Positions 4,570 through 48,136 of a DNA stretch of 64,000 bases are shown in pieces; positions within the stretch are counted from its first letter, which is position 1, and each line of letters begins with the position of its first letter. The notes under the pieces were generated by a model. It did not search any database. It was not told the DNA's origin and saw only the letters and a program-made list of their open reading frames with translations. Location of the stretch: NCBI GenBank assembly GCA_031414955.1, contig JANOQV010000123.1:1-64000 (forward strand), written 5' to 3'. The position numbers were made by a program, and so were the translations under genes. This DNA comes from Pedosphaera sp. (GTDB taxonomy: Bacteria > Verrucomicrobiota > Verrucomicrobiia > Limisphaerales > SIBH01).

Positions 4570-4576
4570 ACCGCAT

Positions 4577-8350: not shown

Positions 8351-8392
8351 CGGCGGTTCCTGCTATGGCCAGTATCTACTCACCGTTTCATA

Positions 8393-31900: not shown

Positions 31901-34530
31901 GCGCTCGCACCGCCCGCCACGCCCGCGTTGTCCGTGATGGTGGCGAAGCCCGTCAACGTGCGGTTGCCCACCGTGTCGGGGGTCAGCAGCGGGTAGCTGA
32001 TGGCGGGCGCGAAGAAATCTCCCGTCAAGGTGAAATTTCCGGCATCCGCGCCGATGTCAGCGGGCGTGAGGGCGCTGCGCGTCTGGCCGTCGAAATCATC
32101 CGTGACCGCCACGAGCACGAGTCCTCCGCTTTCCGCCGGATTGCTCGCCTGCAAGTGCTGGTCGCCCGTCGTGGCATCGCCGGTGGCATTCACGAACAGC
32201 GGGTCCACCGCCGCGCTCGTGACATCCTGTCCGGTCGCGGCCTGCCATGCGGCGAGCGTGGCGTGGTCGGCGCTGTTGTAGAGGCCGAGCACGCCGCCGG
32301 TGCCGCTGACGTGGAAGATGTTGCCGCCCGCCGTCAGCCCGGCGGGGTTCACGGTCGTGCCGCCATAGCTGACGGCGTAGTGCTTGCCGGTGCCGCCGCT
32401 GTTGCTGCGGGCGTTGACAAAAATGTTGTTCTGGTAAGCGCGGGCATTGGCCGTGCCGGTGCTGGTGAAGGCAAAGGTGCTGGCCGCGCCCGAAGTCTGC
32501 GTGCCGCCGACATAGACGGAGTTGTGGTAGAAGTTCCGTCCACTGTCGGTGCCGGCGTCCTGGATGCCGCGCACGATGGATGCGCCCGCCGTGGGGTTCC
32601 CGAGCGCGTCGAGGCCGACGCGCACCATGTTGTTCTGCGCGGTGAAGGTTCCGGAGGCGAACTGTATTCCATTCACCGCCGCCGATGCGCTGGTGGAGGA
32701 AACCGCCAGGCTGTGGACCAGATTTCGCGCGATGACGTTCGCATCACCGATCGTTCCCGCGAAGTAAATCCCAGTCACCGATACCGCCGCCGAAGCCGCC
32801 GTGTTGGCGAGCGAATGCACAACGTTTTGGGACACGATCTGTCCCGCCGACGTGGAGGACTGACTGATGCCGAGCACCGCTTGTGAGGACGAGCCAACGG
32901 CGTTGGCGCTCGGCGTCGAAAGGTTGCGGACGGTGTTGCCGGTGATGATGTTCGCTCCCGCAGAGGTGACAATCCCGTGAACCCGCCCGCCGGCGGTGCC
33001 GACGTAGTTGTTGTTGAGATTGGCCACTGTGTTGCCCGTGATGCTCGCGCTGGTGGTGCTGGTGCTGAGAATGCCGACGACTTGCGGGCCGCCGCCGCCG
33101 GTGGCTGGAGTGGCGGCGTTGAGGCTGTTGGCGGTCGTCGTGCTGCCGACGATGTTGCCGGAGATGGTGTTCGTTCCGGCAGTGACTCGAATGCCGGTGA
33201 TCGAAGAAGAAATGGTGGTGGCCGTGCCGTTCACCGTGATGGAGCCGATGACGTTGTTGACAATGGCGACCGTGCCCAAGCTTGTCGAAACGATGCCGTA
33301 GGTGGTGCTACCGCTGCCAGGAGTCGAGGTCGTGACGGAGACAGAACCCGTGCCGGTGCCGCTGCCGATGGCGTTGCTTGAAGCCGTGCCGATGTTCACC
33401 GTACCCGCCTGCACATAAATTCCGTTCCATGCACCGGGCAGCGCACCGGTGGTGGAACTCGTCCAGACGATGTTCTGAATGGTGTTCCCCTGCAGGCTGC
33501 TCGGCGCGGAGTTGCTGATATTGAGTTGGAGGCCGACGAAACGGTACGCCGCCGCCGTGCCGGTCGTCGTCCAGGCCGTGCCGCCCGCGCTGGCCGCGCT
33601 GCCGCCAATGAAGTTGCCCGTGACCGTGAAGTTCTCGCCGGACGGGTTGTTGAGGTAGATGGCCCGGACACTCGCCGCCACCGCTGCGCGGCTGGCGGTT
33701 TGATAAAAGCTGTTGCCCGTGAGCGTCCAGCCGGTGTTGCCGCCGTCGAGCCGCACGCCCGCCGCATCCAGCGCGGTGGCGGCGTAGAAATTGAAGACGT
33801 TGCAACTGGAGACGGTGTTGCCGCTGTTGTTCTGCGCCGCCGTGGTGGTGGTACCGAGCGCGTAAAGGCCGTGGGCCGGCGTGCTCGCGCCGTCGCCGAT
33901 GTCGCAATGGTCAAGGGTGTTCCCATCGTTGCCGTTCGCGCCCGTGGTGGTGCTGAAGACGACCACGCCGCTCGTGACGTTAGTGTTCACGCCCCGCAGC
34001 GCGAGGTAGCGGACGGTGTTGCCGCTGGCCTCGTTGATGAACCGCAGCGCCACGCCGGCGACGTGATTGTTCGCGATGCTCAACTCCGAAACCGCTCCCA
34101 CCCCGCCGGGCCGTCCGTCCAGCGTGAGGAACTGCGCGCCCCGCAAATCCACCGTGGCCGCCGTGGTGTCCGCGCTGGAGAGGGAGAGTCCGGTCGCGCC
34201 GAGTTCCGGTCGCAGCGTAACGGTGTTGGCGGCGGTCGTCCCCAGGCTGGCGAAGACCAGCGGAAACGTCTCGACGCTGCCGAGGTAGCCGGCCTGGAGT
34301 TCCAGCACCAGCGCGCCCCCGAGCGTCTGCGCCTGGATGTCCACGATGGCCGCGCCGATGCTGGCGTAGTCGCCAGTGGGTCCGATGGTCTTGGTGCCGG
34401 AAAGCGGGGCGGCGGCGGCGGTGTGCGCGAGGAGGAACGCCAGCGCGGTCAACGCCAGCCGGAGAATCGGGACGGCTTGAGGGCGTGAGCGGGTTTTTGA
34501 CGGTTGGCCAAGGTGTTTTTCATAATGCAC
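28963..34530 (-). CDS. Very large secreted surface protein: two beta-helix-like regions, ASH/choice-of-anchor-D Ig, He_PIG-like Ig, MBG-like domain, C-terminal FYR domain
   Basis: Signal peptide (LRLALTALAFLLAHTAAA); duplicated LSGTKT(I/V)G..GDY.S starts; FTITNTGTADL; NSAPSVANAIP; TKAPLTVTANN; ends SRFYRLRLP; start ambiguous. Confidence 0.85.
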   Translation of the reverse strand: MHYEKHLGQPSKTRSRPQAVPILRLALTALAFLLAHTAAAAPLSGTKTIGPTGDYASIGAAIVDIQAQTLGGALVLELQAGYLGSVETFPLVFASLGTTAANTVTLRPELGATGLSLSSADTTAATVDLRGAQFLTLDGRPGGVGAVSELSIANNHVAGVALRFINEASGNTVRYLALRGVNTNVTSGVVVFSTTTGANGNDGNTLDHCDIGDGASTPAHGLYALGTTTTAAQNNSGNTVSSCNVFNFYAATALDAAGVRLDGGNTGWTLTGNSFYQTASRAAVAASVRAIYLNNPSGENFTVTGNFIGGSAASAGGTAWTTTGTAAAYRFVGLQLNISNSAPSSLQGNTIQNIVWTSSTTGALPGAWNGIYVQAGTVNIGTASSNAIGSGTGTGSVSVTTSTPGSGSTTYGIVSTSLGTVAIVNNVIGSITVNGTATTISSSITGIRVTAGTNTISGNIVGSTTTANSLNAATPATGGGGPQVVGILSTSTTSASITGNTVANLNNNYVGTAGGRVHGIVTSAGANIITGNTVRNLSTPSANAVGSSSQAVLGISQSSTSAGQIVSQNVVHSLANTAASAAVSVTGIYFAGTIGDANVIARNLVHSLAVSSTSASAAVNGIQFASGTFTAQNNMVRVGLDALGNPTAGASIVRGIQDAGTDSGRNFYHNSVYVGGTQTSGAASTFAFTSTGTANARAYQNNIFVNARSNSGGTGKHYAVSYGGTTVNPAGLTAGGNIFHVSGTGGVLGLYNSADHATLAAWQAATGQDVTSAAVDPLFVNATGDATTGDQHLQASNPAESGGLVLVAVTDDFDGQTRSALTPADIGADAGNFTLTGDFFAPAISYPLLTPDTVGNRTLTGFATITDNAGVAGGASAPRFYFKKSTDADAFVGNTAADNGWKFVPAANGSSPFSFTIDYSLLNGGGVTAGDTIQYFVVAQDAVDNLVSSPAGAAAASNPPVPNVNAHGATNSYSIFHTLSGTKTVGTGGDYPSLTGAGGLFAAINGSVVADHLVISITSDLTEAGLNGLNQWLEEGAGNYTLTIHPDSATMKTISGPLDGGLIRLNGADRVTIDGRFGGTGRYLTFYNWNDLTSASTLLLLNDACHNTVRSCLVNGHAPNYALGVIGLSTGAVTGNDHNLITDNQVSTPGASQLFASTLIGSTGSSAAVANSSNTIANNELFNFKSHGVFIESTGNDSWTVSGNNIYETATQTFSLYGITMRASGTNAISDNSIHDLLTTGSASITGIDYYGSSTTTISRNRITINTASAGTIVTGISASGIAGSTLDVVNNQISAATANNATIYGLRDVGNAGSVVNVFYNTIVIGGTASGGNNSWASQRYDASTHTSRNNIFLNFRTGGTGSHFAAGREASGGSYTANDNVYAGTGAGATPGNFMDFSATPGTTIPVNFSTWQASISGDASSQASNPGGNFSTNMFVSAATGDLHLVPGGNPLVNATGNPIAGITTDYDAELRSATTPNIGSDEPAAAAAPDLAVAQTSALTDGVSSVDFGPVTVTSGSAARTFTITNTGTADLTSLAIGTDGANPGDFTFSALGSTTVTPGSTTTFTVTFTPSGVGPRNAALHLANNVSGAKNPFDIALTGTGLSANSAPSVANAIPAQAGAYGAAFQFTFAPDVFTDPDAGQSLTYTATNQPPGVGFDAASRTFSGTNEAAGLFLVSVIATDNGVPPRSGTNTFELTVTKAPLTVTANNTNRPYGEANPAFTGALIGLLNLDNITATFGTPTTPASPPGTYLIAPALADPDTRLGHYTITTNLGTLTIQEVRLESSLDGTIATLYWSTGAVNLPLECTASLEAPIIWQAVTNGITITPTNISYTVLPVTVPPSRFYRLRLP

Positions 34531-34606
34531 ATCGTGTGTTTGTTGAGTGATCCCCGGCTGAAAGGGCTGGCGGCGGTCGCGACCAATTCCCTTCAACAGA
34601 GCGGCA

Positions 34607-34653
34607 CTCACCCCTTCCCAAAGATTTTTTGGCGGAAGGTTACAGAGTTAATT
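34607..34653 (-). promoter_or_regulatory. 47-bp repeat copy 1 containing a putative module 2 ECF promoter (TGTAACC-N14-CTTTGGGAA)
   Basis: Near-identical to 41014-41060 and 36742-36780; upstream of the large surface-protein gene. Confidence 0.75.
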
Positions 34654-35327
34654 GGCCAGCCGGAAAAGTGGCGGTTCCAGCGCCGCACGCCGGACACGGT
34701 AAGCCACACGCCGCCAAAAATTCCCAGCGCCCAGATCGTGGGTTCGGGTACGGCGGTGATCTCCAGTTCCCAACTGACCAGCGTGTTGGCGTCTCCACCT
34801 GACACGTCGGCCACGAACAGGGTCCACGTCCCGTTCGGGTCCAAACCGTTGAAGGCGCTCAGGAACGCGCTGCGCGAACTCAGGTCCGTGACCGTGGCCG
34901 GGTTCACGTTGCGCGCGTCGGGCTGATAGGTGCCGGCCAGTGGCGCGCCGCTGTTGCCGCCGTAGTTGTGGATGTCGCCGGCGGCGCTGTCGTCCAGCCA
35001 CACGTTGAAGCCCGCGTCGCCGTAGCCAAAACTATTTCCGCCCGTGCGCCCCGCGCGGTTGAGCAGCACGCTGAATCCGCTGGAGTGCGAGAGATAAACG
35101 TAGAGGTCGCCGTTGTAGCCGCCGGAGAAGTTCAGCCGCACGTTCACGTCGGTGATCACGCTCTCGTGGACGCCCAGTCCGCTGATCGTCTGCGCGTTTT
35201 GATAGCCGTTCACGTTGCCATCGGGGATGAGCGCGTTGAGGCCGTTGAACTGGTAGTGGAGCAGCGCGGCCTGCGCACTCGCGCCAAGCAACAGGCCCGC
35301 ACCGAGCAGAATAATTTTTAGTTTCAT
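34608..35327 (-). CDS. PEP-CTERM sorting-domain protein with a proprotein-convertase P-domain-like fold
   Basis: Signal MKLKIILLGAGLLLGASAQA; ITDVNVRLNFSGGYNGDL, FNGLDPNGTWTLFVAD; VPEP + TM + RR. Confidence 0.88.
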   Translation of the reverse strand: MKLKIILLGAGLLLGASAQAALLHYQFNGLNALIPDGNVNGYQNAQTISGLGVHESVITDVNVRLNFSGGYNGDLYVYLSHSSGFSVLLNRAGRTGGNSFGYGDAGFNVWLDDSAAGDIHNYGGNSGAPLAGTYQPDARNVNPATVTDLSSRSAFLSAFNGLDPNGTWTLFVADVSGGDANTLVSWELEITAVPEPTIWALGIFGGVWLTVSGVRRWNRHFSGWPINSVTFRQKIFGKG

Positions 35328-35359
35328 GGCGATAATTTCTTTCGGTTCATGCCCGCAGT

Positions 35360-35740
35360 TCAGTGCTGCACGCTGCGGTAGTAGGCGCTGCCATTGGGCG
35401 CGCTGTTGTCGGTGAAGCTGAACGCGCCCACCGCGTCGGGCATGAGCGCGCTGCCGTTCAAGGTGGTCCAGCGCGGGCAAATCCAGGAAGCTGCTGAAGG
35501 CAATCGGCGTGGTGATGCCGTGCCGGCGTAGGCTGCCAGCGCGGGCGGACGATCAGGAAAGGCCGAACACAGCCACTGGATTTCCTCCGCCGTGAAGCCG
35601 ACGGCAATCATGCCCGCCATGACCGAGCCGACGGATTTACCGGCGACGTGCGTGAACCAGACATTGTTCGCGTGCAGGAAACTCAGCGCGCCGACGTAGG
35701 CCGCGCCCAGCGCCCCGCCACCCTCGAAGACGCCGTCCAC
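35360..35740 (-). pseudogene. Chimeric remnant: patatin-like phospholipase N-terminal fragment joined to the C-terminal tail of a secreted protein
   Basis: DGVFEGGGALGAAYVGAL and AGKSVG (patatin Gly-rich loop and GxSxG) but no DGG motif; ends FSFTDNSAPNGSAYYRSVQH. Confidence 0.65.
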
Positions 35741-35905
35741 TAATGTGGACGGCGTCTGGGGAAGGAATTAGAAGGTGCGATTACGAAGTGCCTTGGCCTT
35801 CAGATTAGGCAGGGAGCCAATACGTTTGGTTCGGGCCAGGCGGCCGGGGTAGTTGGGAACATTGGACATAATGTCCGCGAGTTGAATTGAAACTTGAGGC
35901 GATGA

Positions 35906-36703
35906 TCAGAATTTCAAATTGCCGTGGCCCGCGACGAGAAGTTGCGAGGACACCACGCTGTCGTTCGGAATCAGCTCGGCCCCGTCCGGCACTTGCATCG
36001 CCACTTCGCGCGTCGCAAACGGATCGCGAAAGGTCGGGGCGGGGACGCGCATCTTGATGGTCTTGTAACGAACCTTCAGCCGGGGCGGATACACGACCAC
36101 CCAGAATGGGATCGAAGCCTCGTAGGCTTTACGAGCGGCGTCCTTGACCTTTTGCCCGCCCAGCCAGTTGTGGAGGAAGAATGTCTTCGTCGGTTCCGGC
36201 ATCGCGTTCAGACGGCGCGCGCCGACCGAGGCCTGGGCCCCGATGGCCAGCCAGTCGTCGTTCACCGTCGAGGCGTCGCAGTTGCACATGTACACGAGGC
36301 GCAGGTTGAACTGTTTCACGCCTTGCGCTCGCGCGTCCTTCAACAGATCGCGAATGGTTCCGGTGTTCGCGCCGCGCTGGCCGGTGAGGTTCGGACCGGA
36401 CTTGAGCACCAGCTTCTCCGGGGAGCCGTGGCCTAGCGCCACGAGATCGATGGTGCGGCCCTTGCGGGTCTCGTCGATGAGGCGTTCGAGCAACTTGGCC
36501 CGCGTGCAAGCGTTGTCGGTGAGATAATGCACAATGTCATAATGGTTCCCCGCCAGCAGCGAGGTTTTGAGGTCTTCAAAGGTTTCCGCCAGTCCGTCCA
36601 CGAGACCTTGCGCCGCCTGGCGCAGCGGGCCGGGCAGGCTGTCATCGAAGGGGGTGTTGCCGCTGTTTTCCTGCAGGACGATCAGACTTTTGTTGGTGGC
36701 CAT
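35906..36703 (-). CDS. Hypothetical protein, possible caspase-hemoglobinase-fold cysteine peptidase
   Basis: IDLVALGHGS and LRLVYMCNC motifs; A-rich leader before ATG; no signal peptide. Confidence 0.6.
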   Translation of the reverse strand: MATNKSLIVLQENSGNTPFDDSLPGPLRQAAQGLVDGLAETFEDLKTSLLAGNHYDIVHYLTDNACTRAKLLERLIDETRKGRTIDLVALGHGSPEKLVLKSGPNLTGQRGANTGTIRDLLKDARAQGVKQFNLRLVYMCNCDASTVNDDWLAIGAQASVGARRLNAMPEPTKTFFLHNWLGGQKVKDAARKAYEASIPFWVVVYPPRLKVRYKTIKMRVPAPTFRDPFATREVAMQVPDGAELIPNDSVVSSQLLVAGHGNLKF

Positions 36704-36741
36704 AAGTTTTTTTTATTTGCTGTTGTTTCGAGAGCTTGGCT

Positions 36742-36780
36742 CTCACCCCTTCCCACAGATTTTTTAGCGGAAGGTTACAG
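36742..36780 (-). promoter_or_regulatory. Repeat copy 2 containing a putative module 2 ECF promoter (TGTAACC-N14-CTGTGGGAA)
   Basis: ctcaccccttcccacagattttttagcggaaggttacag; 38 nt upstream of the ATG at 36703. Confidence 0.75.
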
Positions 36781-37143
36781 GGCAGCAGCGTGGATGGGGC
36801 GGGCGCGGCAAGATACCGGCTGACGGCAGGCGAAGAGACGTCCGGTATCGTCCACTGTGATCATGGTAAAAATTCCGTCACAAGAACCGCGGCGCTTGAT
36901 CTGCCCTGCTCCCGCAGGGAGAAAGGACAAATCTTTTGACGAAGAAAATAGCGGCCGAGAAATAACCACGAAGAAACCAAAGCCTCTTTACGGACAAGAC
37001 ACTCGATCCTGTCCGCTGCCAATCTGTAATCTCCTCAAATCGGATACGCGGACGCCGCCTTGGCCATTGAGGCGCCAACGTCGTTCCCGTCCTGTCGAAT
37101 CTGTAGCCAGCGGGTTTCAGGTCGTCTGCCAGCGTTTGAAAGA

Positions 37144-40100
37144 TCAATTGCCCGTAATCGAACCGACATAGCTCAACACCCGCCATTCGCCATTACCGAC
37201 AAACTGGAGTTCGATGGCGCAGTCGGCGTCGCCGGTGAGATAGCCCGATGTTCCTGTTGTCGTCCGGGCGGTCGAGGTGTAAATCCTGCCTCCGAACGAT
37301 ACGGCCACCAGTCTGGTTCCGTCGGCGGACGACGCCACGGAGGACCATTCCTCATAGATGTTGTGCGGAATCCAACTCACCCCGGAATCCGTCGAAGTAT
37401 AGATGTCCCAATCGTAGTTCACGGCGGCCAGCTTGCTTCCATCGGCCGAGGAGGAGACAGACCACCACAACAGGGCCGAGGCGCGCGGGGTTGACAGGGT
37501 CGCTCCGAAATCTGTCGAGGTATAAATATAATCACCATATGCCACGACGACCACTTTGCTCCCGTTCGCCGAAGCAGCCACGGATCGCCAAGGCGCGGTA
37601 TAGCTGTGATAGACCCAACTCTGTCCTGAATTCTGTGATCTGGTGACCTCGCCGCTCTCCGCTACCGCAACCAGTCTCTTCCCATCGGCGGACGAGGCGA
37701 TGGATAACCAGCCTCGGGATAGTGTGGCCTGGGGTTCCCAACTCACGCCGGAGTTGGTCGAGGTGTAGATTACATCGCCGTAGGCCGCCGCCGCCAGTTT
37801 AGCACCGTCCGCCGAAGAGGCGACGGATCGCCAATCCGAGATGATCCCTCGCAAGGTCCAATTCACTCCAGAATCCGTGGAGGTATAGATATGGCCGAGA
37901 CTCTGTGTCGCGACCAGCTTGGTGCCGTCCGCTGAGGAAGCGACGGAAGACCAGTCGCCGACGCTCGCGCGCGCCGCCCAAGTCACACCGTAGTCGGTCG
38001 AGGTGTAAATCTGGCCTGCCAGGACGACGGCCACCAGTTTGGCACCATCCGCAGAGGAGGCGACGGCATTCCAATTCCGGTTGTTCTCCCGGCCCGTCCA
38101 TGTGTCAAAGCTCGCGCCGGGCAGGGGCGTGAGCAGAACCGATTGTCCGGCGTTTTGGACGACCTTCCAGCCGCCCAGACCGGCCCCGGACACGCGCACC
38201 ACAGCGCCGACGGTCGGAGACGCCGGAAGGGTGATGGTGACCTGGGCTGCGTTCGTCGCCACATAACCGCTGTTGGCGACAGCCTGCTGGTTGGTGCCCG
38301 CCACGGCCTGCCATCTCAAGGTGCCAGCACCTTGAAAGGCCGTCGCCGTCACCGTGCCGGCGACATCAACGGCGGCAGCCGTGAGTGTCCCCGCGACATC
38401 AAGATCGCTGGCCGTGATCGTGCCGGCGACATCCAGGGCACTGGCCGGATTATTTTTGTTGATGCCCACCCCGCCCGCCGCGCGGATGAGGAACTGATCG
38501 TTGGTGGTGGAGTTGAAGTCCGCCGCCTGCGAATCCGACCAGACAAAAGCACCCTGGTGTTTCGCCTTGGCCTGGCGTCCGGCGGCGAAACTGTAATCAG
38601 CGAGGGCGGCCGCGCCGGTGCCGAGTTCCACCCGGGTGGCACTAACATCAAACAGCCCCGCGCTTTCCACCACCACACTGCCCACCACATGGAGCGCGGC
38701 CACGGGCCGGGTCGTGCCAATGCCCACCCAGCCGCTGCTGATCAGGCTCGCGGCGTTCGTGCTGAAGCCCAGGATGGTGAAAGCGTTGTCCCCACTGGCG
38801 GTGACGACGAGGTTGGTTCCGGCAAAAGCCACGCCGTAGGCTCCGTTCAAGAATGCCGCCCCACCCAGGCCGTCTTTTACCGTGGTCAACAGGATCGGGG
38901 CGGCGGGGTTGCTGATGTCCACGAGGGTCACGGTATGACCGACGAAGGACGCAATCGCCAGCCGGTTGCCGGAAATGGCGACCGAATAAGGCCCGTTCAA
39001 TGAATACCCGCCGACTCCATTTCGAAGCTCCGCTAATTTCACCGGACTGGCGGGATTGGTGACATCGACCAGAACAACGAGATCGCCAGTCAAGGCGGTC
39101 ACGACCAGCAGATTGCCCGAGAAGGCCACCGCATTGACGTTGAGGAGGTTGTAGCCACCCACGCCGTGTTTGATCTGACTGAGGATCACTGGGATGGATG
39201 GGACGGACACATCCACCAAGGTCACGGCGTTGTCCGTGTAGGCGCCGATGGCCAGCAGGTTGCCGGACAGGGCCACGCTCCGCACTCCCGCGAGCTCGGT
39301 GAAACCGTTGAAACCGTCCTTCATGAAACCGCGCAGCACTGGCACCGCCGGGTTTGAAATGTCCGCCAGCGTCACCGCGCCGTCATTCACCGCGCCCATC
39401 GCCAGTATGTTTCCCGAGACCGCCACGGCCCGGACCCCGTTGAGTTGATCCCATCCGCCCACGCCATCGCGCAACTCGGCCAGCAGCGCCGGGCTGCTCG
39501 GATTCGTTGCGGAGATAAAAGTAACGGCATCGTCATTGATCGCGGCGACGACCAGTGTGGAACCAGCCCAGGCCACCGCTGTGGCTCCGGCGAGCGCGGT
39601 GAAACCGCCGACGCCATCGCGAACTTGGGACACCAGCACCGGGGCCAGCGGATTGGTGATGTTCACCAGCGTCACGCCATTGTCGTCCGCCGCCGGGATG
39701 GCCAGCAGCGTGCCGGACAGCGCCGGCTGCCCGGCGTAATTCAAGTTGGTGTAGGCACCCGTCTCGTCCTGAACTTGGAACAACACGGTGGCCGATAGCA
39801 GCGGCGTGCTGGCCGTGATGTGCAAAGCCGTCTCGGGCGCGTTGGTGCCGATGCCGACGAGGCCGTTGGTGTTGACCTGCACCGCGTTGGCCGGCGAACC
39901 ATCCGAAGCCCCCAACTGACTCACCGCGCCGGGCGCGATCATCGCGCTGGTGATGCTTCCCGTCGCGATGTTGGCCGGGGCAATCGTCCCGGCGATGCCC
40001 GTTGCGTTAACGCCTCCGGCGAAGATGGCGTAGGGCGTGGAGGTCAGTTCCGTGCGAGGTGTGAGCGGGGTGTAGGCTCCCGCCCCGTTGGTTCGCACCA

Positions 40101-40392
40101 GGAGATCCAGCCAACGTGCGGGTCCGGTGAACACGCTGCTGCCGAAGTCCAGCCGGATGGTGAACAAACCGTTCGTGACCGGCACGGCGGCGAAGCTCTG
40201 AAACGGCCCTTGCGGCAAGCCCAACGTCACGGCGTCATACACGCGAAACTGAAAATCGTAGAGACCGGTGGCCGGGGCGGTGTTGTCATCCAGTCGGCCT
40301 TCGTAGGTGAAGGCCGTGCCTTGGGCCACGGCCCGGCCGAGACCGGAGGCGAGCGCCAGCACAGTGAGGAGGGAGAGTAATTTTGTTCTCAT
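37144..40392 (-). CDS. Large secreted protein with LVIVD-like repeats and a C-terminal BNR/Asp-box beta-propeller
   Basis: Signal MRTKLLSLLTVLALASG then QGTAFTYEGRL; VTLVDVSNP-type repeats; VGIGT motifs; repeated WxSVASSADGxKL...IYTSTDSGVxW. Confidence 0.85.
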   Translation of the reverse strand: MRTKLLSLLTVLALASGLGRAVAQGTAFTYEGRLDDNTAPATGLYDFQFRVYDAVTLGLPQGPFQSFAAVPVTNGLFTIRLDFGSSVFTGPARWLDLLVRTNGAGAYTPLTPRTELTSTPYAIFAGGVNATGIAGTIAPANIATGSITSAMIAPGAVSQLGASDGSPANAVQVNTNGLVGIGTNAPETALHITASTPLLSATVLFQVQDETGAYTNLNYAGQPALSGTLLAIPAADDNGVTLVNITNPLAPVLVSQVRDGVGGFTALAGATAVAWAGSTLVVAAINDDAVTFISATNPSSPALLAELRDGVGGWDQLNGVRAVAVSGNILAMGAVNDGAVTLADISNPAVPVLRGFMKDGFNGFTELAGVRSVALSGNLLAIGAYTDNAVTLVDVSVPSIPVILSQIKHGVGGYNLLNVNAVAFSGNLLVVTALTGDLVVLVDVTNPASPVKLAELRNGVGGYSLNGPYSVAISGNRLAIASFVGHTVTLVDISNPAAPILLTTVKDGLGGAAFLNGAYGVAFAGTNLVVTASGDNAFTILGFSTNAASLISSGWVGIGTTRPVAALHVVGSVVVESAGLFDVSATRVELGTGAAALADYSFAAGRQAKAKHQGAFVWSDSQAADFNSTTNDQFLIRAAGGVGINKNNPASALDVAGTITASDLDVAGTLTAAAVDVAGTVTATAFQGAGTLRWQAVAGTNQQAVANSGYVATNAAQVTITLPASPTVGAVVRVSGAGLGGWKVVQNAGQSVLLTPLPGASFDTWTGRENNRNWNAVASSADGAKLVAVVLAGQIYTSTDYGVTWAARASVGDWSSVASSADGTKLVATQSLGHIYTSTDSGVNWTLRGIISDWRSVASSADGAKLAAAAYGDVIYTSTNSGVSWEPQATLSRGWLSIASSADGKRLVAVAESGEVTRSQNSGQSWVYHSYTAPWRSVAASANGSKVVVVAYGDYIYTSTDFGATLSTPRASALLWWSVSSSADGSKLAAVNYDWDIYTSTDSGVSWIPHNIYEEWSSVASSADGTRLVAVSFGGRIYTSTARTTTGTSGYLTGDADCAIELQFVGNGEWRVLSYVGSITGN

Positions 40393-40482
40393 GGTTTGTT
40401 GATTGGATTGGGAATGAAACTGCGGTGCTGATCGGTGACTGGGGAAAACGCGGGCCTGCCGTTGCTGCTTTTGTTTCATGAT

Positions 40483-40971
40483 CTATCGTCGGAATTTCAC
40501 GACCCTCTTGGCCGGGATTTGCATCCCAGCATTCGCTCCGCCCTTCACCCCGAGGAGTGAGTTGGTGTTGGCGAACGGCATGATGATGAAGAGGCTCGCA
40601 CCATTGGTCTGGTGAGGATACGTGGCGACCGTCCAGACCACGGGCACCGTGTCGAGGGATTCCGTCTCTTCCAGAACAAAATCCCCGGCGGCCAGCGGCC
40701 ACGAAATCCGTACGCCCGATTCCAGCCGCTCGATGCTCAACGGCGGGGCCAGCCGTGGCGACGTAATGTCGAACACGGCCCGGAATCCGGTGGCGAGCGA
40801 AAAGCTACCGCCTCGGACGGTGGCCGCCTGTGTCTGGCCCGCCGTGCCCCGGACGCGATAAAGGCCGCCCGTGCTCGTGCCGCCACCACTGGCGATCACA
40901 TGCCCGACTAGGGCGGGTTGCGCCGCGCCGAACAGCGGCGTAAGGAGGAGAGTCATCAGCCAGAGCTTCAT
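40483..40971 (-). CDS. Small secreted protein
   Basis: Signal MKLWLMTLLLTPLFGAA; VIASGGGTSTGGLYRVRGTAGQ; VRISWP...FVLEETESL. Confidence 0.75.
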   Translation of the reverse strand: MKLWLMTLLLTPLFGAAQPALVGHVIASGGGTSTGGLYRVRGTAGQTQAATVRGGSFSLATGFRAVFDITSPRLAPPLSIERLESGVRISWPLAAGDFVLEETESLDTVPVVWTVATYPHQTNGASLFIIMPFANTNSLLGVKGGANAGMQIPAKRVVKFRR

Positions 40972-41013
40972 TTCTGTTTCTTTCTTAAGTTGTTTTGCCC
41001 ATCGAGATCGCGT

Positions 41014-41060
41014 CTCACCCCTTACCAACGATTTTTTGGCGGAAGGTTACAGAGTTAATT
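41014..41060 (-). promoter_or_regulatory. 47-bp repeat copy 3 containing a putative module 2 ECF promoter (TGTAACC-N14-CGTTGGTAA)
   Basis: Differs from 34607-34653 at only 2 positions; upstream of the 40971/40392 gene pair. Confidence 0.75.
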
Positions 41061-41133
41061 CAGCCCCTGTCCGCCCGCCTTCCTCCTTTCCCATCTCGGT
41101 GCGGATGTGAAAGGCTCGCCGCACTTCACGCGC

Positions 41134-42612
41134 ATGAAATCCGTCATCAAGAATGCGAACGGCCCGGTCACGAGAAAACCGCGCCTCCTCGTCGGCGTCT
41201 GTTCCTGCCACGGCCATGCGCCGCTGCGAGCGGCGGCGCGAGCGACGTGGGCGGGACAGGTGGCGGAGCGCATCCGGGTCGTGTTCTTCGTGGGCGACGG
41301 TTCGGAATCCGAAGCGCCGGACGTGTGGGTGCTGCGCTGCCCGGACGACTACGAGGCCCTGCCTTTGAAAACGCAGACGTTCCTGCGGCGCGCGTTGGGC
41401 GAGGATGATTGGGACTACGTTTTCAAGTGCGATGACGACACCTACGTGATGCTGGACCGGCTGGCGGGACTGGCCGGACTGGGCGAATTCGTGGGCAGCG
41501 CGGACACGGCCGGAGCGGGATTCGCCAGCGGCGGCGGCGGGTACCTGCTTTCCCGAAACGCCGCCCGCGCTGTAGTCGAAGCGCCGGTGCCAGCACCCGG
41601 TGCGGAGGATGTGTGGGTGAGCCGGCTCTTGCAACAGGCCGGCTTCAAGCTCGTCGCATCACCGGCGCTGCAAATGAATCATGCGGTGTTGCCGAACCGG
41701 GAGAACAGCATCGTCACGGCCCACTGGTGTTCGGAGGAACTCCTGCGCCTCATCCACCGCGCCCTCGCCGATCCCGGCGCGCTCCGCGCGGCGCACACGT
41801 TTCACGCGACTCACGCGGCGTGGCACGGCCCGGTCACGCTGCTCGAAGGCGGTTATTTCTTCGGCGGGAGTTTCCGTCCCGACGGCCGGTGGGAATTCGA
41901 GGTCGGAGAAACCTGGCTGCGCTTGCAATGGTTTCACTGGCCGGAAGATCGCCTGGTCTTCACGCCGCTGGGATTCGTGAACGCGACGCTGCGCCTGGAT
42001 CGAGTGCCGATGGAAGCGGCGGCGGGAAATGGACCTCAGAAAAAAGTCGCGCGTGATCCACTCGCCCCCAGCGCGGAGAAACTGCATCTCGGCGCGGGGG
42101 GCAACCCCCTGCCCGGCTGGAGCAACCACGATCTCGACATGGATTTGCGCCAACCGCTGCCATTGCCCGATGCGTCCGTCCGCTTCCTGTTTGCGGAGCA
42201 TGTGGTCGAACACGTCACGCCGCGCGAGGCCTGGCGTTTCTTCAAGGAAGTGCGGCGCGTGCTGAAGCCAGGCGGAGTGCTGCGCCTCGCGGTGCCGTGC
42301 GTGGACTTGATCGCGGAACGGTACGACGAGGCTTACGCGGATTTTCTCCGGCGCGTCACGGGCGGGGATGGCTCGAAGGAGAACGCAATGGATTCGATCA
42401 TCAGCAACTGGGGGCATCAAGCCGTGTGGACGGTGCCTGCGCTCCGGGCCGTCCTCCACGCCCTGGGACTGAAGACCACGGAAGGCCAGTCCGGCGTTTC
42501 CGCCCACCCGGAATTGCACGGCATCGACGGTCACGCCCGCGCCATCGGCGCGCACGCCAACTGGGTGGAAACCGGAATCGTGGAGGCGGTGAAACCCGCA
42601 CTCCCAATTTGA
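41134..42612 (+). CDS. Fusion: GT31/fringe-like glycosyltransferase + class I SAM-dependent methyltransferase
   Basis: RATW, DDYEALPLKT, FKCDDDTYV, GGGGYLLS, EDVWV; then LHLGAG, AEHVVEH, RVLKPGGVLRLAVP. Confidence 0.8.
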   Translation: MKSVIKNANGPVTRKPRLLVGVCSCHGHAPLRAAARATWAGQVAERIRVVFFVGDGSESEAPDVWVLRCPDDYEALPLKTQTFLRRALGEDDWDYVFKCDDDTYVMLDRLAGLAGLGEFVGSADTAGAGFASGGGGYLLSRNAARAVVEAPVPAPGAEDVWVSRLLQQAGFKLVASPALQMNHAVLPNRENSIVTAHWCSEELLRLIHRALADPGALRAAHTFHATHAAWHGPVTLLEGGYFFGGSFRPDGRWEFEVGETWLRLQWFHWPEDRLVFTPLGFVNATLRLDRVPMEAAAGNGPQKKVARDPLAPSAEKLHLGAGGNPLPGWSNHDLDMDLRQPLPLPDASVRFLFAEHVVEHVTPREAWRFFKEVRRVLKPGGVLRLAVPCVDLIAERYDEAYADFLRRVTGGDGSKENAMDSIISNWGHQAVWTVPALRAVLHALGLKTTEGQSGVSAHPELHGIDGHARAIGAHANWVETGIVEAVKPALPI

Positions 42613-42677
42613 AACCGGGCCACTGCCGACCAACGCTGCCGACGGGCCAAGTCAAAACCGAACGGTTCGCTTCCTGT

Positions 42678-43124
42678 TCAAATCCCGGTCCCGCCGAGTT
42701 GAGCATTCGGGTTCGGTAAGGGGATCAGCGCAGCCATAGGCCGGTCGTCCAATCCTTCAATGGAGTAGGAGGACGAGATGAATGAGGTCAAATTGCCAGG
42801 GGACATCGTCATAACAGGATCGGCCAGGCCCAACCGTGCCGCCATGCCGGCTGTGATCGCAGGTTTGTCACTATGGCCCTCGATGTTTCCGCAGACGAAT
42901 CCAAGCTGCACGCTGTAAAGCTGGGCCGTGTCCAGGAGGCACTTCTGATGGATGTGCAAGGAATTGATGAGTTGGTCACGGCCTGTCTCCAAAGCCGTGA
43001 TCGCAGATTTGATGTGATGCTCTTTCACTTCCCCAGGAAAGGGCACGCGGAATTTTTTACGATTTTCGAGCAACGTGATCAGGTATTGGATCCGTCCGAT
43101 CATTTCTACGGCTTTTTCATTCAT
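42678..43124 (-). CDS. Hypothetical protein (visibly lower GC than its flanks)
   Basis: 148 aa ATG-initiated ORF; no recognisable motif. Confidence 0.5.
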   Translation of the reverse strand: MNEKAVEMIGRIQYLITLLENRKKFRVPFPGEVKEHHIKSAITALETGRDQLINSLHIHQKCLLDTAQLYSVQLGFVCGNIEGHSDKPAITAGMAARLGLADPVMTMSPGNLTSFISSSYSIEGLDDRPMAALIPLPNPNAQLGGTGI

Positions 43125-43255
43125 AAGTACGAGTCTCCTGCGGGGTGTGGTTTGTTTTTGTTTCTGCGGTTTGGTAGCAATTTGATCCGGGTGGCCTCAA
43201 GCGAAATGTCCCGCCGGAACGCGGCGCGCGACCGCCGGGCGGGTGGCCTCACACG

Positions 43256-44365
43256 ATGAACATTTATTTTTTCGGCTGGCCCAGTGAACTGGGCGGGGCG
43301 GGCACCAAGCTCGCGCATCTGCTGCGCCTGTTGCGCGGCGAGTTCGAGATCACGGTGGTGCCCACCGTGGAAAAGGAAGCCGCCGACACGCGCTGGCAGC
43401 AGCGGATCGAGGCGCTGGGTGCGCGCTGGATGCGCTTCGAGCAACTGCCGCCGCAGCTCGAAGGGTGGGGCGTCCTGCTCTGCAATCATCTCATGATCAG
43501 ACCCGGGACGCTGGGCGAACTGCGCCGGCGCGGGTTGCGCCTGGCCTGGTCGAATGAAATGATGTGGACCACGCGCGAGGAACTCGGCCCGCTGGCCTTC
43601 GGACAGTTTGACGCCGTGCTCTACGTCTCGCCGGAACAACGCACCGCGCTGGAGCCGCAATACCTCCACATGCTCACCGGCCTCCGTCCGCCCGCGCCGG
43701 AGCGCGTGGACGAACGCGCGACCGAAGGCTGGCTGGCGGGCCGACGCGTGCGCTGGGTGATGACGGGCAACTACATTGACCCGGCGGAATTCCCGTTCCA
43801 CGAGCGGCCACGCGGCACGCCGCCGCGTCCTTTGGTCGTGGGCCGACTCTCGCGCGCGGACGCGGACAAGTTCCCCGAAAAATTTCCCGAGAGCTACGCA
43901 GGGCTGGGGCTGAAGGACGCGCGCTTTCGCGTGATGGGCTGGGGCGGGAAGATCGCGGAGCAGTGGCCGCGCAAACGCTTCGACGGGCGCTGGGAACTGC
44001 TGCCGCCCTGCGCCGAGCCGACCGCCGCCTTCCTGCAATCGCTCGACCTCTTCGTGTATGAACTCGGCGCGAGCTGCTGCGAAAGCTGGGGCCGCGCCGT
44101 GGTGGAGGCGATGCTGACCGGGGCGGTGCCGCTGGTGCCGGCGGATCGCAGGCACCATCTCCACGCGCTCGTGCCGCATGGCCAAGCAGGGTTCCACTGC
44201 GCGACGCGCGCGGAGTTCGGACACTACGCCCGACGGCTGGAAGCCGACGACGCGCTGCGGCTCAAGATGTCCCGGCAGGCGCGGGCGTGGGCGGAAAAGA
44301 AGTTGTGCAACACGGAAGAACATCGCGAGCGGTGGCGGCGGTTGTTTCATGGCGGCGCGGGTTGA
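43256..44365 (+). CDS. Glycosyltransferase (GT-B, family 4-like)
   Basis: GGAG, VVGRLSR, FLQSLDLFVY, ESWGRAVVEAMLTG (E-x7-E). Confidence 0.85.
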   Translation: MNIYFFGWPSELGGAGTKLAHLLRLLRGEFEITVVPTVEKEAADTRWQQRIEALGARWMRFEQLPPQLEGWGVLLCNHLMIRPGTLGELRRRGLRLAWSNEMMWTTREELGPLAFGQFDAVLYVSPEQRTALEPQYLHMLTGLRPPAPERVDERATEGWLAGRRVRWVMTGNYIDPAEFPFHERPRGTPPRPLVVGRLSRADADKFPEKFPESYAGLGLKDARFRVMGWGGKIAEQWPRKRFDGRWELLPPCAEPTAAFLQSLDLFVYELGASCCESWGRAVVEAMLTGAVPLVPADRRHHLHALVPHGQAGFHCATRAEFGHYARRLEADDALRLKMSRQARAWAEKKLCNTEEHRERWRRLFHGGAG

Positions 44366-47259
44366 GTTCCCTCCAGTTGCGCCAGGCGCTGCCCGAGTTT
44401 CTTCCGCGTTTTGTCCTCGGCTGGCACGCTGGCCGCGCGGACGGGAAGCTGCTCCAGCGCCTCGCGCAGCAGCGCCACGGCTTCGGCGGTGAAAGGCGTG
44501 TCCGGGTCAGCGTGGCGAACGACGAGCAGGCTGAGATCGGCCGCCAAGAGACGAAATTTGTAATCGCCCTGGGCGATGTGGCGATGCGTGCGGAGCCAGC
44601 GCAAAAGATCACGCGCGGTCGCCAGCGCCTCCGCATGTTTCCCGCCTGCGTCCCGGGACTGGCCGAGGTGGAAAAAGGTGATGGGGATATAAACCCAGAA
44701 GTTGGCCTGGTCCGGCACTTCCGCGAAGATGGCCAGCCGCAACTCCAGTGCGGCCTGAAGGTCCGGCTCCATTTTTTCCAGCTCCCGCTGTTTCGCGTAG
44801 TAGTAGTTCGCCGCAGAGGTGTGGAGACTGGCCCGCGCCCACCGCCACCAGCCGTTGGTGCCCGGCAAGGAATCAATCGCCTGGCGCAAATACTTGTACT
44901 CGGCATCGCCTCGCTCCACCCGGCGCGTGTGCCGGGCGATTCTGGCGTAGGCATTGACCAGGAGTTGATAACGATGCGGCGTGTCCGGAAACGCGGCCAC
45001 GGACGCCAGTTGGTTCGTCAAGTCGCGCTCGTAGGTGACGCGGGCCAGATTCGTCTGCCCTTGGTGGTCGAACCAGTCGCCCTGCGCGGCCATCGAGTTT
45101 TGCAACTGTTCGGTCCAGTCCACACGCTCCGGCTCCTGGGCCGCGAGCCGCATGAAAATGTCGCAGGAGGACTGGAGCCACGGGCCGGGACGCGCATCGT
45201 CCGGCGTCACGTCGGACACCAGAATCGCGGAGGACCGCAGCAATTCACCGTGATGCTGCTGCCAGGTGACGTTCGCCGGATCGCGTGCGGCCAGGCGTCC
45301 GGTCAGTTCGAGACCCCGTTCCGAGTGGCGCACGGCCTCGGCGCGCAAGGCGGCTGCGGCGACGGTATTGGTCCGGGCGGTCGTGCTGGCGCGGGCCTTG
45401 ATCACTTCGGCCAGCCGGGCCTGGGCGACGCCCAGCTCGTTCTGCCACTGCGGCGCTTCGGGGAACCGGGCCACGAGCTTTTCGTGAATGACGAGGTATT
45501 CCCGGAACGCGCCCTCCGCGCGCTCGCGCTGGTCCTGCTTCTGCCAAATGCGCCCCAGATTGTAGTGGGCGAAGCCGTTCAGGCTTTGCCATTCGGCGGT
45601 GGCCTCCGGCCGGACGGCCAGTTCCGCCGCGAGGCGCGCGCCCGCCTCGTAGTTGGTCTGCTGCATGTCGTGCAGATCAAATTCCCACGCCACGTCGCCC
45701 AGTCCGAAATGCGCGCGGGCCAGTTGCGCGGCGAACGCCCCATTCGCAGGCTCGCCGCGCAGCGTCTCGGTCGTGAAGGCGACGAGTTCACCGCCCACGC
45801 GCAGCGCGCCTTGCACATCATGCGTGTCGCGCAAGACATCGCGCAGCGCGGCGAGCGTGTCCGCCCGGTTGGTGCGCCAGCCCAGCGTGGTGGTCGGATC
45901 GCGCGACCGGCCCAGAACTTCCAGTGCTTCCTGCACGATGCCCCGCGCCCGTTTCAAGTCGCCCGTGTCCCGGGCCGCGCCCGCCTCCTTCACGAGAAAA
46001 ATGGAATGAAGCGTCTGAAATCCCGCATCCGACCGGAGCCGGGACTGTTCCTCGAAATACGGCCGCAGTTTCGCCAGCACCTGCGCCGTGAGCGGACTGC
46101 GGCCCACCTCGGCGAGTTGCGGGGTGAGGGATTCGAGCATGTAACGGATGTTCTGCTCGGTTCGGTCGCGGGCGGAGCGCACATTGCGCAGCGCGATTCG
46201 CTGCGCCACCAGGCCGACGGCCAGCAGCGCGGCCAGCAGCACCGACAGGCTCGCGACCACCGGATTGCGCCGCGCCCAGCGCCAGGCGCGTTCCGCCGCC
46301 CCAGCGGGCCGGGCCTGGATGGGTTTGTGTTCGAGGAAGCGTTCGATTTCGTCGGCTACTTCGCGGGCGGTGCCGTAGCGGCGCGCGGGTTCTTTGGCCA
46401 GGCATTTTAGGCAGATGATTTCCAGATCGCGCGGCACGGCGGGATTCAATGCACGGGGCGGAGTTGGCTCCGAGTGCAGCACCGAGAGCAGGGCCTGCTC
46501 AATCGTCGCGGCTTGGAAGGGAGGTTTTCCCGTGAGCAGAAAATAGAGAATCGTCCCCAGCCCATAGACATCGCTGGCGATGGTCGCTTCACCGCGCTGC
46601 GGATCAAGCTGCTCGGGCGACATGAAGCTGGGCGTGCCCATGATTCGTCCGGCCACGGTGGCGTCGCGCGGATCGCCGAGCAGTTTGGCGAGACCGAAAT
46701 CCGTCACGCGCGCCTGGCTGGTATCGTCGAGCAGCACGTTGGCCGGCTTGAGGTCGCGGTGCAGCACGCCGCGCTGGTGGGCGTGATGGACGGCGATGGC
46801 GATCTGCCGGGTCCAATGCGCGGATTCGGTCACGGAAGGCGGCTGAAGTTTCACGCGGCGGGCCAAGTCCGGGCCAGACACATACTCCATGCTCAGGAAA
46901 GGCTGGCCGTCGTGCTCGCCCACTTCATGAATCGCGACGATGCCCGGGTGGTTGAGACCGGCCGCAGCCTCCGCCTCGGTGCGAAAGCGCCGCACGCTTT
47001 CGGGACCAGCCACGCCCGGCAGGAGCATCTTCAACGCGACGATGCGGTGCAGGCTGATCTGCCGCGCGCGGAAGACCACGCCCATGCCGCCGCGCGCGAT
47101 TTCCTCCAACAGTTCATAATCGGCGCAACCGCGCTCCAGCATGGTGATCTGCGCCGCCGCCAGGCCCAAGTGAAGAAGACAACTCGGGCACGCGCCCTCC
47201 GGCACGCCGGGGGGCTTGGTCTTTCCACACTCAGGGCAAAGTTGTTTCGACATCTCCAC
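44347..47259 (-). CDS. Hanks-type Ser/Thr protein kinase with N-terminal Zn ribbon, TM helix and TPR-like C-terminus
   Basis: CPEC...CPSC; ARGGMGVV, ALK, HRDLKPAN, DFG, GTPSFMSPEQ; TM after WARRNP; helical repeats. Confidence 0.93.
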   Translation of the reverse strand: MEMSKQLCPECGKTKPPGVPEGACPSCLLHLGLAAAQITMLERGCADYELLEEIARGGMGVVFRARQISLHRIVALKMLLPGVAGPESVRRFRTEAEAAAGLNHPGIVAIHEVGEHDGQPFLSMEYVSGPDLARRVKLQPPSVTESAHWTRQIAIAVHHAHQRGVLHRDLKPANVLLDDTSQARVTDFGLAKLLGDPRDATVAGRIMGTPSFMSPEQLDPQRGEATIASDVYGLGTILYFLLTGKPPFQAATIEQALLSVLHSEPTPPRALNPAVPRDLEIICLKCLAKEPARRYGTAREVADEIERFLEHKPIQARPAGAAERAWRWARRNPVVASLSVLLAALLAVGLVAQRIALRNVRSARDRTEQNIRYMLESLTPQLAEVGRSPLTAQVLAKLRPYFEEQSRLRSDAGFQTLHSIFLVKEAGAARDTGDLKRARGIVQEALEVLGRSRDPTTTLGWRTNRADTLAALRDVLRDTHDVQGALRVGGELVAFTTETLRGEPANGAFAAQLARAHFGLGDVAWEFDLHDMQQTNYEAGARLAAELAVRPEATAEWQSLNGFAHYNLGRIWQKQDQRERAEGAFREYLVIHEKLVARFPEAPQWQNELGVAQARLAEVIKARASTTARTNTVAAAALRAEAVRHSERGLELTGRLAARDPANVTWQQHHGELLRSSAILVSDVTPDDARPGPWLQSSCDIFMRLAAQEPERVDWTEQLQNSMAAQGDWFDHQGQTNLARVTYERDLTNQLASVAAFPDTPHRYQLLVNAYARIARHTRRVERGDAEYKYLRQAIDSLPGTNGWWRWARASLHTSAANYYYAKQRELEKMEPDLQAALELRLAIFAEVPDQANFWVYIPITFFHLGQSRDAGGKHAEALATARDLLRWLRTHRHIAQGDYKFRLLAADLSLLVVRHADPDTPFTAEAVALLREALEQLPVRAASVPAEDKTRKKLGQRLAQLEGTQPAPP

Positions 47260-47263
47260 AATG

Positions 47264-47293
47264 TTCCCAACGAAAAATTGCGCCGAGGTTACA
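47264..47293 (-). promoter_or_regulatory. Putative module 2 ECF promoter (TGTAACC-N14-CGTTGGGAA) upstream of the TPR kinase
   Basis: Same boxes and spacing as the three island repeats but a divergent spacer. Confidence 0.7.
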
Positions 47294-47402
47294 GTTGGAG
47301 TTCAAGCTTCAGCTCGTTCCCCACCGCCCGCCGGTGCTCGCAGCCTCGCACTTCTCCGTTCGTGCCAACTCGGACGGAGCAAGCTGAAGCTTGGACTCCA
47401 AC
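47294..47402. repeat. REP-like inverted repeat between the ECF and kinase genes
   Basis: GTTGGAGTTCAAGCTTCAGCTCGTTCC ... GGAGCAAGCTGAAGCTTGGACTCCAAC. Confidence 0.8.
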
Positions 47403-47404
47403 GG

Positions 47405-48136
47405 TCACCGGCCCACCACGCTGATCAAGTAACGCAACTCGTCATCCACCTCCGCCGGACTGCTCACGGTGCGGGCGATTGCCTGGCGCAGCAATTCGCC
47501 GTAGCGTTGCCGCAGGCGATGCACCGCCACCTTCACCGCGCCTTCACTCATCCCGCAGCGCGTCGCGACCTCCGCGTAGGCGGGGCCGGAGCGGTCGCCT
47601 TGGAGCGAGCCGCGCAGTTGGTCGAACAGTTCGCGCTTGCCGGACTCGGTGTGTTCTTCCCGCAGCCGTTCCGTAACGTGTTCGAGCAGGGTGAACGCCC
47701 ACCGCTTCTCGAACAGTGATTCGGGCGTTTCCCCGTCCGGCGCGTCGAGCGCGAAACGAGCTTCACCTTCCTCGGCATCCAGCGAGAGCAGCCGCTGCCC
47801 GCCGCCGCGCTTCTGGGCCTGTCCGCGCTGCCATTCGTTGCCCAGAAAATTCTCGAGCGACTTGAGCAGGAAGGAACGGAACCGTCCGCCGTCGGGCCGC
47901 ACACCCGAGAGCGCGCTCTTGCTCACGAGGCGGGTGAAAAAATCCTGGATGACGTCCTCGGCCTCGACTGGCAAGAGACCGCGCCGCCGGGCGAAGGCGT
48001 AGAGCGGATGCCAGTAGGCGAGGTAAAGATCGGCGAAGGCCGTGTTGTCGGAAGGGGCGTCCGGTCGCGCGGCTTCCAGAACCAGAGTCCAGTGCGTCGT
48101 CTGAAAAACGGCCAGCGCCGTGCGTCCTGAGTTCAT
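47405..48136 (-). CDS. ECF-type RNA polymerase sigma-70 factor (kinase-associated PVC type), paralogue of 8487-9260
   Basis: FQTTHWTLVL, YWHPLYAF, EAEDVIQDFF, GRFRSFLL, YAEVATRCGMSEGAVKVAVHRLRQRY. Confidence 0.92.
   Translation of the reverse strand: MNSGRTALAVFQTTHWTLVLEAARPDAPSDNTAFADLYLAYWHPLYAFARRRGLLPVEAEDVIQDFFTRLVSKSALSGVRPDGGRFRSFLLKSLENFLGNEWQRGQAQKRGGGQRLLSLDAEEGEARFALDAPDGETPESLFEKRWAFTLLEHVTERLREEHTESGKRELFDQLRGSLQGDRSGPAYAEVATRCGMSEGAVKVAVHRLRQRYGELLRQAIARTVSSPAEVDDELRYLISVVGR

Follow-up and report, generated by a model that had tools for sequence, protein, structure and literature searches.

Sigma factor, receptor kinase and four promoter-like sites between rplT and pheS

The 64,000-nucleotide stretch analysed here (the window; contig JANOQV010000123.1 of Pedosphaera sp., Verrucomicrobiota) carries between rplT and pheS a 19.6-kb block (28652–48223) with an extracytoplasmic function (ECF) sigma factor gene, a receptor kinase gene and four copies of a short bipartite motif, the predicted promoters that are our subject. 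From rplT onwards the order is a terminator-like hairpin, the ECF gene, the kinase gene, two plus-strand genes, three target units and pheS. The ECF gene (47405–48136, minus strand) encodes 243 amino acids with an N-terminal FxTTxW[S/T] motif. It matches Pfam Sigma70_r2 and r4_2, scores 49.6 bits against TIGR02937 (cut-off 42.9), has only the sigma2 and sigma4 domains, and gives profile and fold matches to solved ECFs (the fold search ranks ECFs first, with every E value above 0.001). By gene context and published description, rather than by a group profile, it is ECF62-like, and it is the likely reader of the four sites. The kinase gene (44347–47253, minus strand) encodes a Hanks-type Ser/Thr kinase with an N-terminal CxxC...CxxC zinc finger and one predicted membrane helix near residues 330–357; an alternative upstream GTG start at 47259 is possible. 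In a preliminary description of this DNA it was called a TPR kinase, of which the kinase part stands, while the C-terminal part is helical and weakly TPR-like (best Pfam E 6e-4, below cut-off).

The pattern TGTAACC-N14-CKKTGGKAA has exactly four matches in the window, all on the minus strand (34615–34644, 36750–36779, 41022–41051 and 47264–47293), and none in 100 shuffles of the window, a generous control in that the pattern was derived from the very sites counted. This agrees with the four sense-oriented minus-strand copies of fixed box spacing first reported; the sites are there, but two of the intervals then given (34607–34653 and 41014–41060) span a wider 47-bp module and not the 30-nt site. 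The copy at 47264–47293, the predicted ECF promoter of the kinase gene, consists of a -35 box TGTAAC, 16 nt and a -10 box GTTGGGAA, and lies 10 nt from the kinase ATG. The predicted promoter of target unit 1 (41022–41051, in module 41014–41060; homologous to a site at C132:35232 in the same assembly) lies 50 nt from the gene start at 40971, and that of unit 2 (36750–36779) 46 nt from the start at 36703. That of unit 3 (34615–34644) lies about 160 nt from the predicted coding start of the large gene 28963–34452, and its module, 34607–34653, overlaps the last codons of a PEP-CTERM-like gene (34608–35327).

Six exact copies exist in the full assembly of 6.55 Mb and 313 contigs; relaxing the pattern gives 12 rows, these six among them, and a box-only pattern that ignores the spacer recovers the identical six. 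The two extra copies lie on contig C132, one before a paralogous kinase that is itself preceded by an ECF 87% identical to that of the window, the other before a homologue of the 40483–40971 gene. The three island copies, those before the target units, represent one duplicated module: 34607–34653 and 41014–41060 are 95.7% identical, the spacers agree at 13–14 of 14 positions and the flanks are also common, whereas the kinase copy, as already noticed in the preliminary description, has both boxes and a divergent spacer (4–5 of 14). The window therefore holds two independent site types rather than four, and the four can no longer be counted as separate observations, only the kinase copy being independent of the duplicates. 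Two other candidate features were rejected: a shared hairpin or attC-like structure, which was weak and missing from some of the six sites folded, and Sigma70-type promoters in the block (2 found against 2.4 expected). Read-through into the ECF gene from rplT was likewise rejected because the terminator-like hairpin (48231–48260, minus strand, a consensus match only) intervenes between the ECF gene and the ribosomal operon.

The genes behind the sites, all on the minus strand, are mostly of secreted or surface type. Unit 1 comprises a 162-aa protein with a signal-peptide-like start (40483–40971) and a secreted-type protein of about 1,070–1,110 aa with LVIVD repeats and an uncertain start (37144–40479). 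Unit 2 begins with a 265-aa protein (35906–36703) that matches no family. An early assignment of this protein as a Cys peptidase finds no meaningful Pfam or NCBIfam match, the signal heuristic gives no signal peptide, and a single-sequence structure model is unusable (pLDDT 39); it has a His-Gly and a Cys whose spacing we presume to resemble a caspase-type dyad. The P-domain protein at 34608–35327, which has a weak PEP-CTERM-like tail, probably belongs to the same unit. Exosortase and EpsI-like genes at 10827–12778 (minus strand) offer a possible sorting route for it. Unit 3 is a surface-type protein of about 1,830 aa with Ig-like ASH and MBG_2 domains (28963–34452). At 34452–34532 a plausible ATG for this protein (34523 or 34532) is out of frame with a signal-peptide-like stretch, possibly through a frameshift, an assembly error or a non-ATG start. 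At 35360–35740 (minus strand) there is an apparent remnant, a patatin-like fragment with an altered nucleophile region, joined to a short tail of the type found on secreted proteins. Two plus-strand sugar-modifying genes separate the kinase from the first target, a galactosyltransferase-methyltransferase fusion (41260–42612) and a family-4-like glycosyltransferase (43256–44365), both missing from the C132 locus.

In contigs of related organisms (runs X3, X4 and X5, from two studies) the block is missing and position 28651 is followed directly by 48224, which links rplT to pheS. On one side, 22 of 124 letters deviate from the window sequence, so these contigs come from a different strain. No integrase was seen in a domain scan of the block. 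Outside it, an AbiEii-like nucleotidyltransferase gene with a weak Pfam match (27078–27620, minus strand) sits between pheS and pheT.

Recurrence of the site across the FxTTxW family

The family of sigma factors with the FxTTxW motif is large, taking in 6,877 of 7,997 scored candidates; of 61 genomes from the order, 56 contain a match (the weakest are other ECFs), with up to 32–39 family matches per Verrucomicrobiota genome. Our comparison used 185 unique ECF loci, ten having been dropped (eight duplicates of the window genome, one pattern match and one distant match). A kinase lies directly downstream in 138 of the 185, with the finger in 132; the gap between ECF and kinase is at least 40 nt in 89, shorter in 43, and without a callable start in 6. 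The pattern G[CT]AAC-N20-G.A occurs in 42 of the 89 longer gaps and in 1 of 87 regions upstream of the ECF, in line with the placement proposed for the window, before the kinase gene rather than the ECF gene. Controls gave 2 of 43 short-gap (coupled) pairs, 1 of 89 reversed gaps and a shuffle mean of 1.4. Box spacing peaks at N20, the next value, N17 with 20, being the same box read 3 nt earlier. Upstream of the window ECF gene the best score is 1.2, and no autoregulatory site was found there; autoregulation from a site upstream of the ECF gene is common among ECFs and not obligatory.

Training a matrix on 25 sites taken from other genomes gave scores at or above the threshold of 12 in 39 of 64 held-out gaps, against 5 upstream and 0 reversed regions. 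The family consensus, yGTAAC, 16 nt and then an octamer with a conserved G and A, is very likely, on comparative evidence, the promoter of the FxTTxW ECF family. The four closest metagenome orthologues (L190–L193, 72–78%) all have TGTAAC...(T/C)TTGGGAA before the kinase, and L191 repeats it downstream too. An exact-letter search in 60 relatives returned a single match, apparently antisense inside a gene and taken as chance, which marks the exact letters as subfamily-specific. The layout of ECF, site, zinc-finger kinase, site and secreted protein recurs across the order, and the kinase site is also found in Planctomycetota and Acidobacteriota, where the regions upstream of the ECF hold no site (59 loci, with one unpublished locus excluded). 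Pairs of the Prosthecobacter and Chthoniobacterales types are for the most part coupled and do not have the site.

Several figures speak against so general a promoter. The strict pattern is absent from 47 of the 89 gaps, and about 30 of the loci in the count are those in which it had initially been spotted by eye. The threshold is reached in 5 of 15 Planctomycetota gaps (14 of the 15 have GT[A/G]AC as best match), in 1 of 6 Acidobacteriota gaps and in 14 of 45 metagenome gaps, the last with loose kinase calling.

A feature outside the matrix allows the start point to be predicted. Of 123 sites, 64% have a pyrimidine-purine step 7 nt beyond the conserved A, against 7–28% elsewhere in the flanks, and by this step transcription would begin at 41016, 36744, 34609 and 47257–47259, respectively, for units 1 to 3 and the kinase gene, leaving the kinase a very short leader or none.

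Some arrangements depart from the usual layout. In L052 (about 12100), L094 and L003/L110 the sites are tandem or nested, so that the -35 box of a copy coincides with the -10 region of the preceding one. Family-type sites precede divergent or upstream neighbours of ECFs, several of them kinase-free, at G000 C61:18977 and C171:40897 and in L043, L049 and L051. At G000 C107:263 and C235:681, zinc-finger kinases near contig ends have strong sites and no adjoining ECF found in the assembly, and at G000 C37:17746 a short winged-helix-like reading frame stands between the site after an ECF and the kinase.

The sites also recur further downstream. In the 10 kb beyond the kinase (60 loci that have a kinase site, 426 kb) there are 58 sense matches and 1 antisense match, with at least one in 40 of the 60 loci, compared with 2, 7 and 5 sense matches in 158, 258 and 305 kb of three comparison groups. 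The genes that follow these sites (n=53) include three further kinases; of the remaining 50, a crude heuristic flags 40 as probably secreted, against a background of 39%; a Pfam scan of 35 target proteins matched 25, mostly to beta-propeller, Ig-like and phytase-like domains. The local battery of surface or secreted proteins envisaged in the preliminary description is thus recovered as a mostly secreted one. A genome-wide matrix scan of the kind that it suggested likewise shows non-random placement: with a matrix built without the window genome, and with approximate gene starts from our own gene caller, 21 of the 31 top matches lie upstream of a gene in sense orientation, against 6.7% of random positions, and 15 of these 21 have a family ECF no more than 15 kb away, a zone that makes up 8.4% of the genome. 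The first matrix gave 28 of 59 upstream-sense matches, and five column-shuffled matrices gave 0–7.

The orientation of these copies bears on whether the island copies are no more than a cassette junction (a short module that was duplicated or recombines readily), not every copy of which need be a working promoter. Their 47 bp at 95.7% identity end abruptly on both sides, one copy overlaps a gene end, and the block looks inserted between rplT and pheS, all as a cassette would have it. But downstream copies at other loci (L168, L094) keep the boxes while their spacers differ, the module core is 28–30/30 identical to the C132 copy amid neighbouring DNA that is about 80% identical, no hairpin is common across the sites, and sense orientation prevails by 58 to 1; we regard the cassette explanation as improbable.

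Correspondence between sigma factor residues and site letters

Which sigma factor reads the sites can be approached through covariation. The site letters differ from locus to locus, and five to seven ECF residues vary in step with them. Over 64 loci, mutual information links ECF residue V203 to site position 3, K202 to positions 6 and 7 and N100 to position 23, with further peaks for N96 (25), V79 (26), S88 (28) and Q103 (22). In the -35 box, V203 goes with T in 41 of 41 loci and S203 in 0 of 10; K or R at 202 goes with C in 55 of 56, and other residues in 0 of 8. In the -10 box, N100 goes with T (39/44), D100 with C (14/15), R96 with A (12/13) and A79 with A (27/31). Alignment to M. tuberculosis SigE puts K202, V203 and H206 in the sigma4.2 helix and N96 and N100 in sigma2.4. 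The register also uses an RpoE numbering that is in part our own assumption. In the register given by the SigE alignment, the family residue-base offsets equal the RpoE contact offsets; Todor et al. tested Arg171/-31, Ser172/-34 and Asn84/-13,-12 in RpoE and name Asn80/-11 (PMC7776599). We suggest that K202, V203 and H206 of sigma4 would read the -35 box, and V79, S88, N96, N100 and Q103 of sigma2 the -10 box.

The correspondence extends to loci that were held out. On 12 held-out metagenome loci the code scored +42.0 against -26.4 when shuffled (p=2e-4), and on 6 loci of other phyla +9.8 against -8.9 (p=0.007). The first downstream site also resembles the kinase site of its own locus more than that of a shuffled one, in the -10 box (6.45 vs 4.27 of 8, p=1e-4) and in the -35 box (5.33 vs 4.61 of 6, p=1e-4). 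On a tree built without the coding columns, tests over all branches gave p<0.02 in five of nine cases, with no opposite pairs, and a contrast index of 0.25–1.00 compared with a mean of 0.13 and a maximum of 0.44 in 70 mismatched controls.

Other results of the same tests count against the code. Supported branches alone yield 2–4 independent pairs per test, none significant (with almost no opposite pairs), and four of the nine all-branch tests fail. A code learned without the window genome is wrong at 3 of 9 positions of the window kinase site. The spacer, too, is closer within loci (5.15 vs 4.11 of 12, p=1e-4), so that local copying explains part of the match between sites of one locus.

The sites could also serve a different, shared sigma factor or another regulator, as the core GTAAC box common to most family loci and the 6 of 21 upstream genome matches far from any family ECF might suggest. 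Against such a regulator, the site letters follow the residues of the adjacent ECF, and among 22 aligned ECFs of the genome the matching residue set occurs only in the window ECF and its C132 paralogue; we give this alternative very little credence, less than the cassette. As the 87%-identical C132 ECF has the same key residues, cross-talk between these two loci is expected. Covariation, own-locus match and held-out loci together support the proposal that the adjacent ECF (47405–48136) reads the sites, and the four sites are in all probability promoters of this neighbouring sigma factor.

The window holds a second pair of the family, with its own version of the site. Its ECF (8487–9260, minus strand) is 47% identical to the first and has A203 and E100 at coding positions; its kinase (4772–8350, minus strand) has WD40 repeats. 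A variant site, TGCAAC...CTCTGATA (8391–8420, minus strand), precedes this kinase, and a matching one, TGCAAC...CTCTGAAT (4575–4604, minus strand), precedes a secreted M23/fn3/Calx-beta gene (2080–4569) whose ATG coincides with the predicted +1. The pair thus has its own variant, TGCAAC...CTCTGA, at both its kinase and its secreted gene.

Control by the kinase and comparison with known systems

On the evidence as a whole we consider it highly probable that the sites are promoters and that the adjacent ECF reads them; this ECF would in turn be switched on by the membrane kinase through phosphorylation. The C-terminal domain of the kinase would sense an outside signal, whereupon the kinase would activate the ECF, most likely by phosphorylating the near-invariant N-terminal Thr14/Thr17. 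The activated ECF would start transcription 7 nt after the conserved A and so raise expression of the kinase and the targets, its own gene not being autoregulated, and variation at a few coding residues would keep the 20-odd paralogous pairs per genome largely insulated.

That the kinase acts as an activator is the part of this explanation we hold less firmly, and we favour it moderately. In the N-terminal extension, Thr14 is present in 174 and Ser/Thr17 in 172 of 176 family ECFs; residues 1–13 are of low confidence in the structure model. Weighing against it, 45 of the 176 have no adjacent kinase and still have Thr14 and Ser/Thr17, so these residues do not single out kinase partners. In addition, region 2.2 is already acidic (E58-A59-E60-D61, with Asp at the last position in 171 of 176), so the EcfP route does not apply in its described form (PMC8999054). 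Thr63 as a phospho-stand-in for the acidic motif was also considered; the association was weak (Fisher p=0.026, 176 ECFs, kin not independent), and the idea was dropped as M. tuberculosis SigE has Thr there too.

Conversely, the zinc finger of the kinase might be an anti-sigma element that tethers the ECF at the membrane until signal-induced phosphorylation releases it, with the same promoter and negative feedback. In ordinary ECF/anti-sigma operons, ECF-driven expression of the regulator does amount to negative feedback. The acidic E-A-E-D may let the ECF bind polymerase unaided (compare PMC8999054), and no anti-sigma gene adjoins the ECF among its annotated neighbours. Of the 138 adjacent kinases 132 have the finger, and within the genome it occurs in 15 of 16 kinases next to an ECF compared with 10 of 35 others; its four Cys are invariant in 55 sequences. 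Those 10 zinc-finger kinases without an ECF directly upstream argue the other way, as does the difference between CxxC...CxxC and the HX3CX2C zinc motif of anti-sigma factors (PMC7826278), and both characterised ECF-kinase pairs activate (PMC8999054, PMC13147305). We consider an anti-sigma role possible but unlikely.

Activation by the kinase thus remains our preferred reading. A broader and more speculative picture, to which we attach somewhat less weight than to the anti-sigma role, would make the ECF, zinc-finger receptor kinase and copied promoter a mobile plug-in switch, with the kinase both anti-sigma and release trigger, and with a code of five to seven residues keeping 20–40 switches per genome orthogonal, each with its own shuffled set of secreted propeller and Ig proteins. 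If true, sigma factors would here be controlled in a way not yet described, and the switches would form a natural library of orthogonal promoters, each gated by a signal.

On comparative grounds, the site and the covarying residues very likely represent the promoter and the recognition code of a kinase-linked ECF family that is widespread and unstudied. Such a promoter supplies the missing read-out for the effect of the kinase on the sigma factor, the sites assign regulators to many unannotated secreted proteins of Verrucomicrobiota, and the family offers natural ECF-promoter pairs with a readable code. No promoter for the FxTTxW family was found in the accessible literature, the ECF Hub lying outside the search and possibly bearing on novelty; in the supplements of PMC7776599, as far as accessible, the relevant taxa and groups were not matched by name, and entries may sit under other identifiers.

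The closest described group is ECF62 (PMC7826278), which has the kinase at +1 with one membrane helix and an N-terminal zinc finger, all shared by the window kinase, and no anti-sigma neighbour, likewise as here. WD40 repeats, present in many members and the larger subgroups, are shared by the kinase at 4772–8350 and the C132 kinase and not by that at 44347–47253. ECF62 is described from Planctomycetes only, whereas the loci here are mostly from Verrucomicrobiota: the closest named locus (74%) belongs to a metagenome-assembled genome of Limisphaerales, most named loci are from Verrucomicrobiota, and Planctomycetota homologues have 38–52% identity. No conserved promoter was predicted for ECF62, and non-self-regulated ECF subgroups are said there to show no motif, in contrast to the conserved promoter downstream of the ECF found here.

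The ECF43 pairs EcfP/PknT of Vibrio parahaemolyticus and EcfK/PknS of Xanthomonas citri (PMC8999054, PMC13147305) are likewise made up of an ECF and, after it, a Hanks kinase that crosses the membrane once and has a TPR-type domain outside, and phosphorylation is the presumed control both there and in the window pair. In ECF43 the acidic DAED motif is missing and a phospho-Thr at that place brings about activation (PMC8999054), whereas the window ECF has E-A-E-D; EcfK also requires a linker site (PMC13147305). Further differences from ECF43 are that the window ECF is extended at both termini, is paired with a zinc-finger kinase and has numerous paralogues in each genome. For kinase-linked ECF groups other than ECF43 the mechanism has not been worked out (PMC8999054).

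Local ECF regulons and a residue code are already known, while a downstream site feeding the kinase and insulation at the level of paralogues were not found in the accessible print record. Todor et al. (2020, PMC7776599) describe small, closely linked ECF regulons, as here, and a specificity code through Arg171, Ser172, Phe175, Asn80 and Asn84, whose equivalents would set specificity in the present family too. Unlike in their study, the code here differs from paralogue to paralogue of a single genome. They searched for promoters in front of the ECF gene, its operon or a divergently oriented gene, whereas the main site here lies downstream, before the kinase, a location that suggests why upstream-only searches would miss it.

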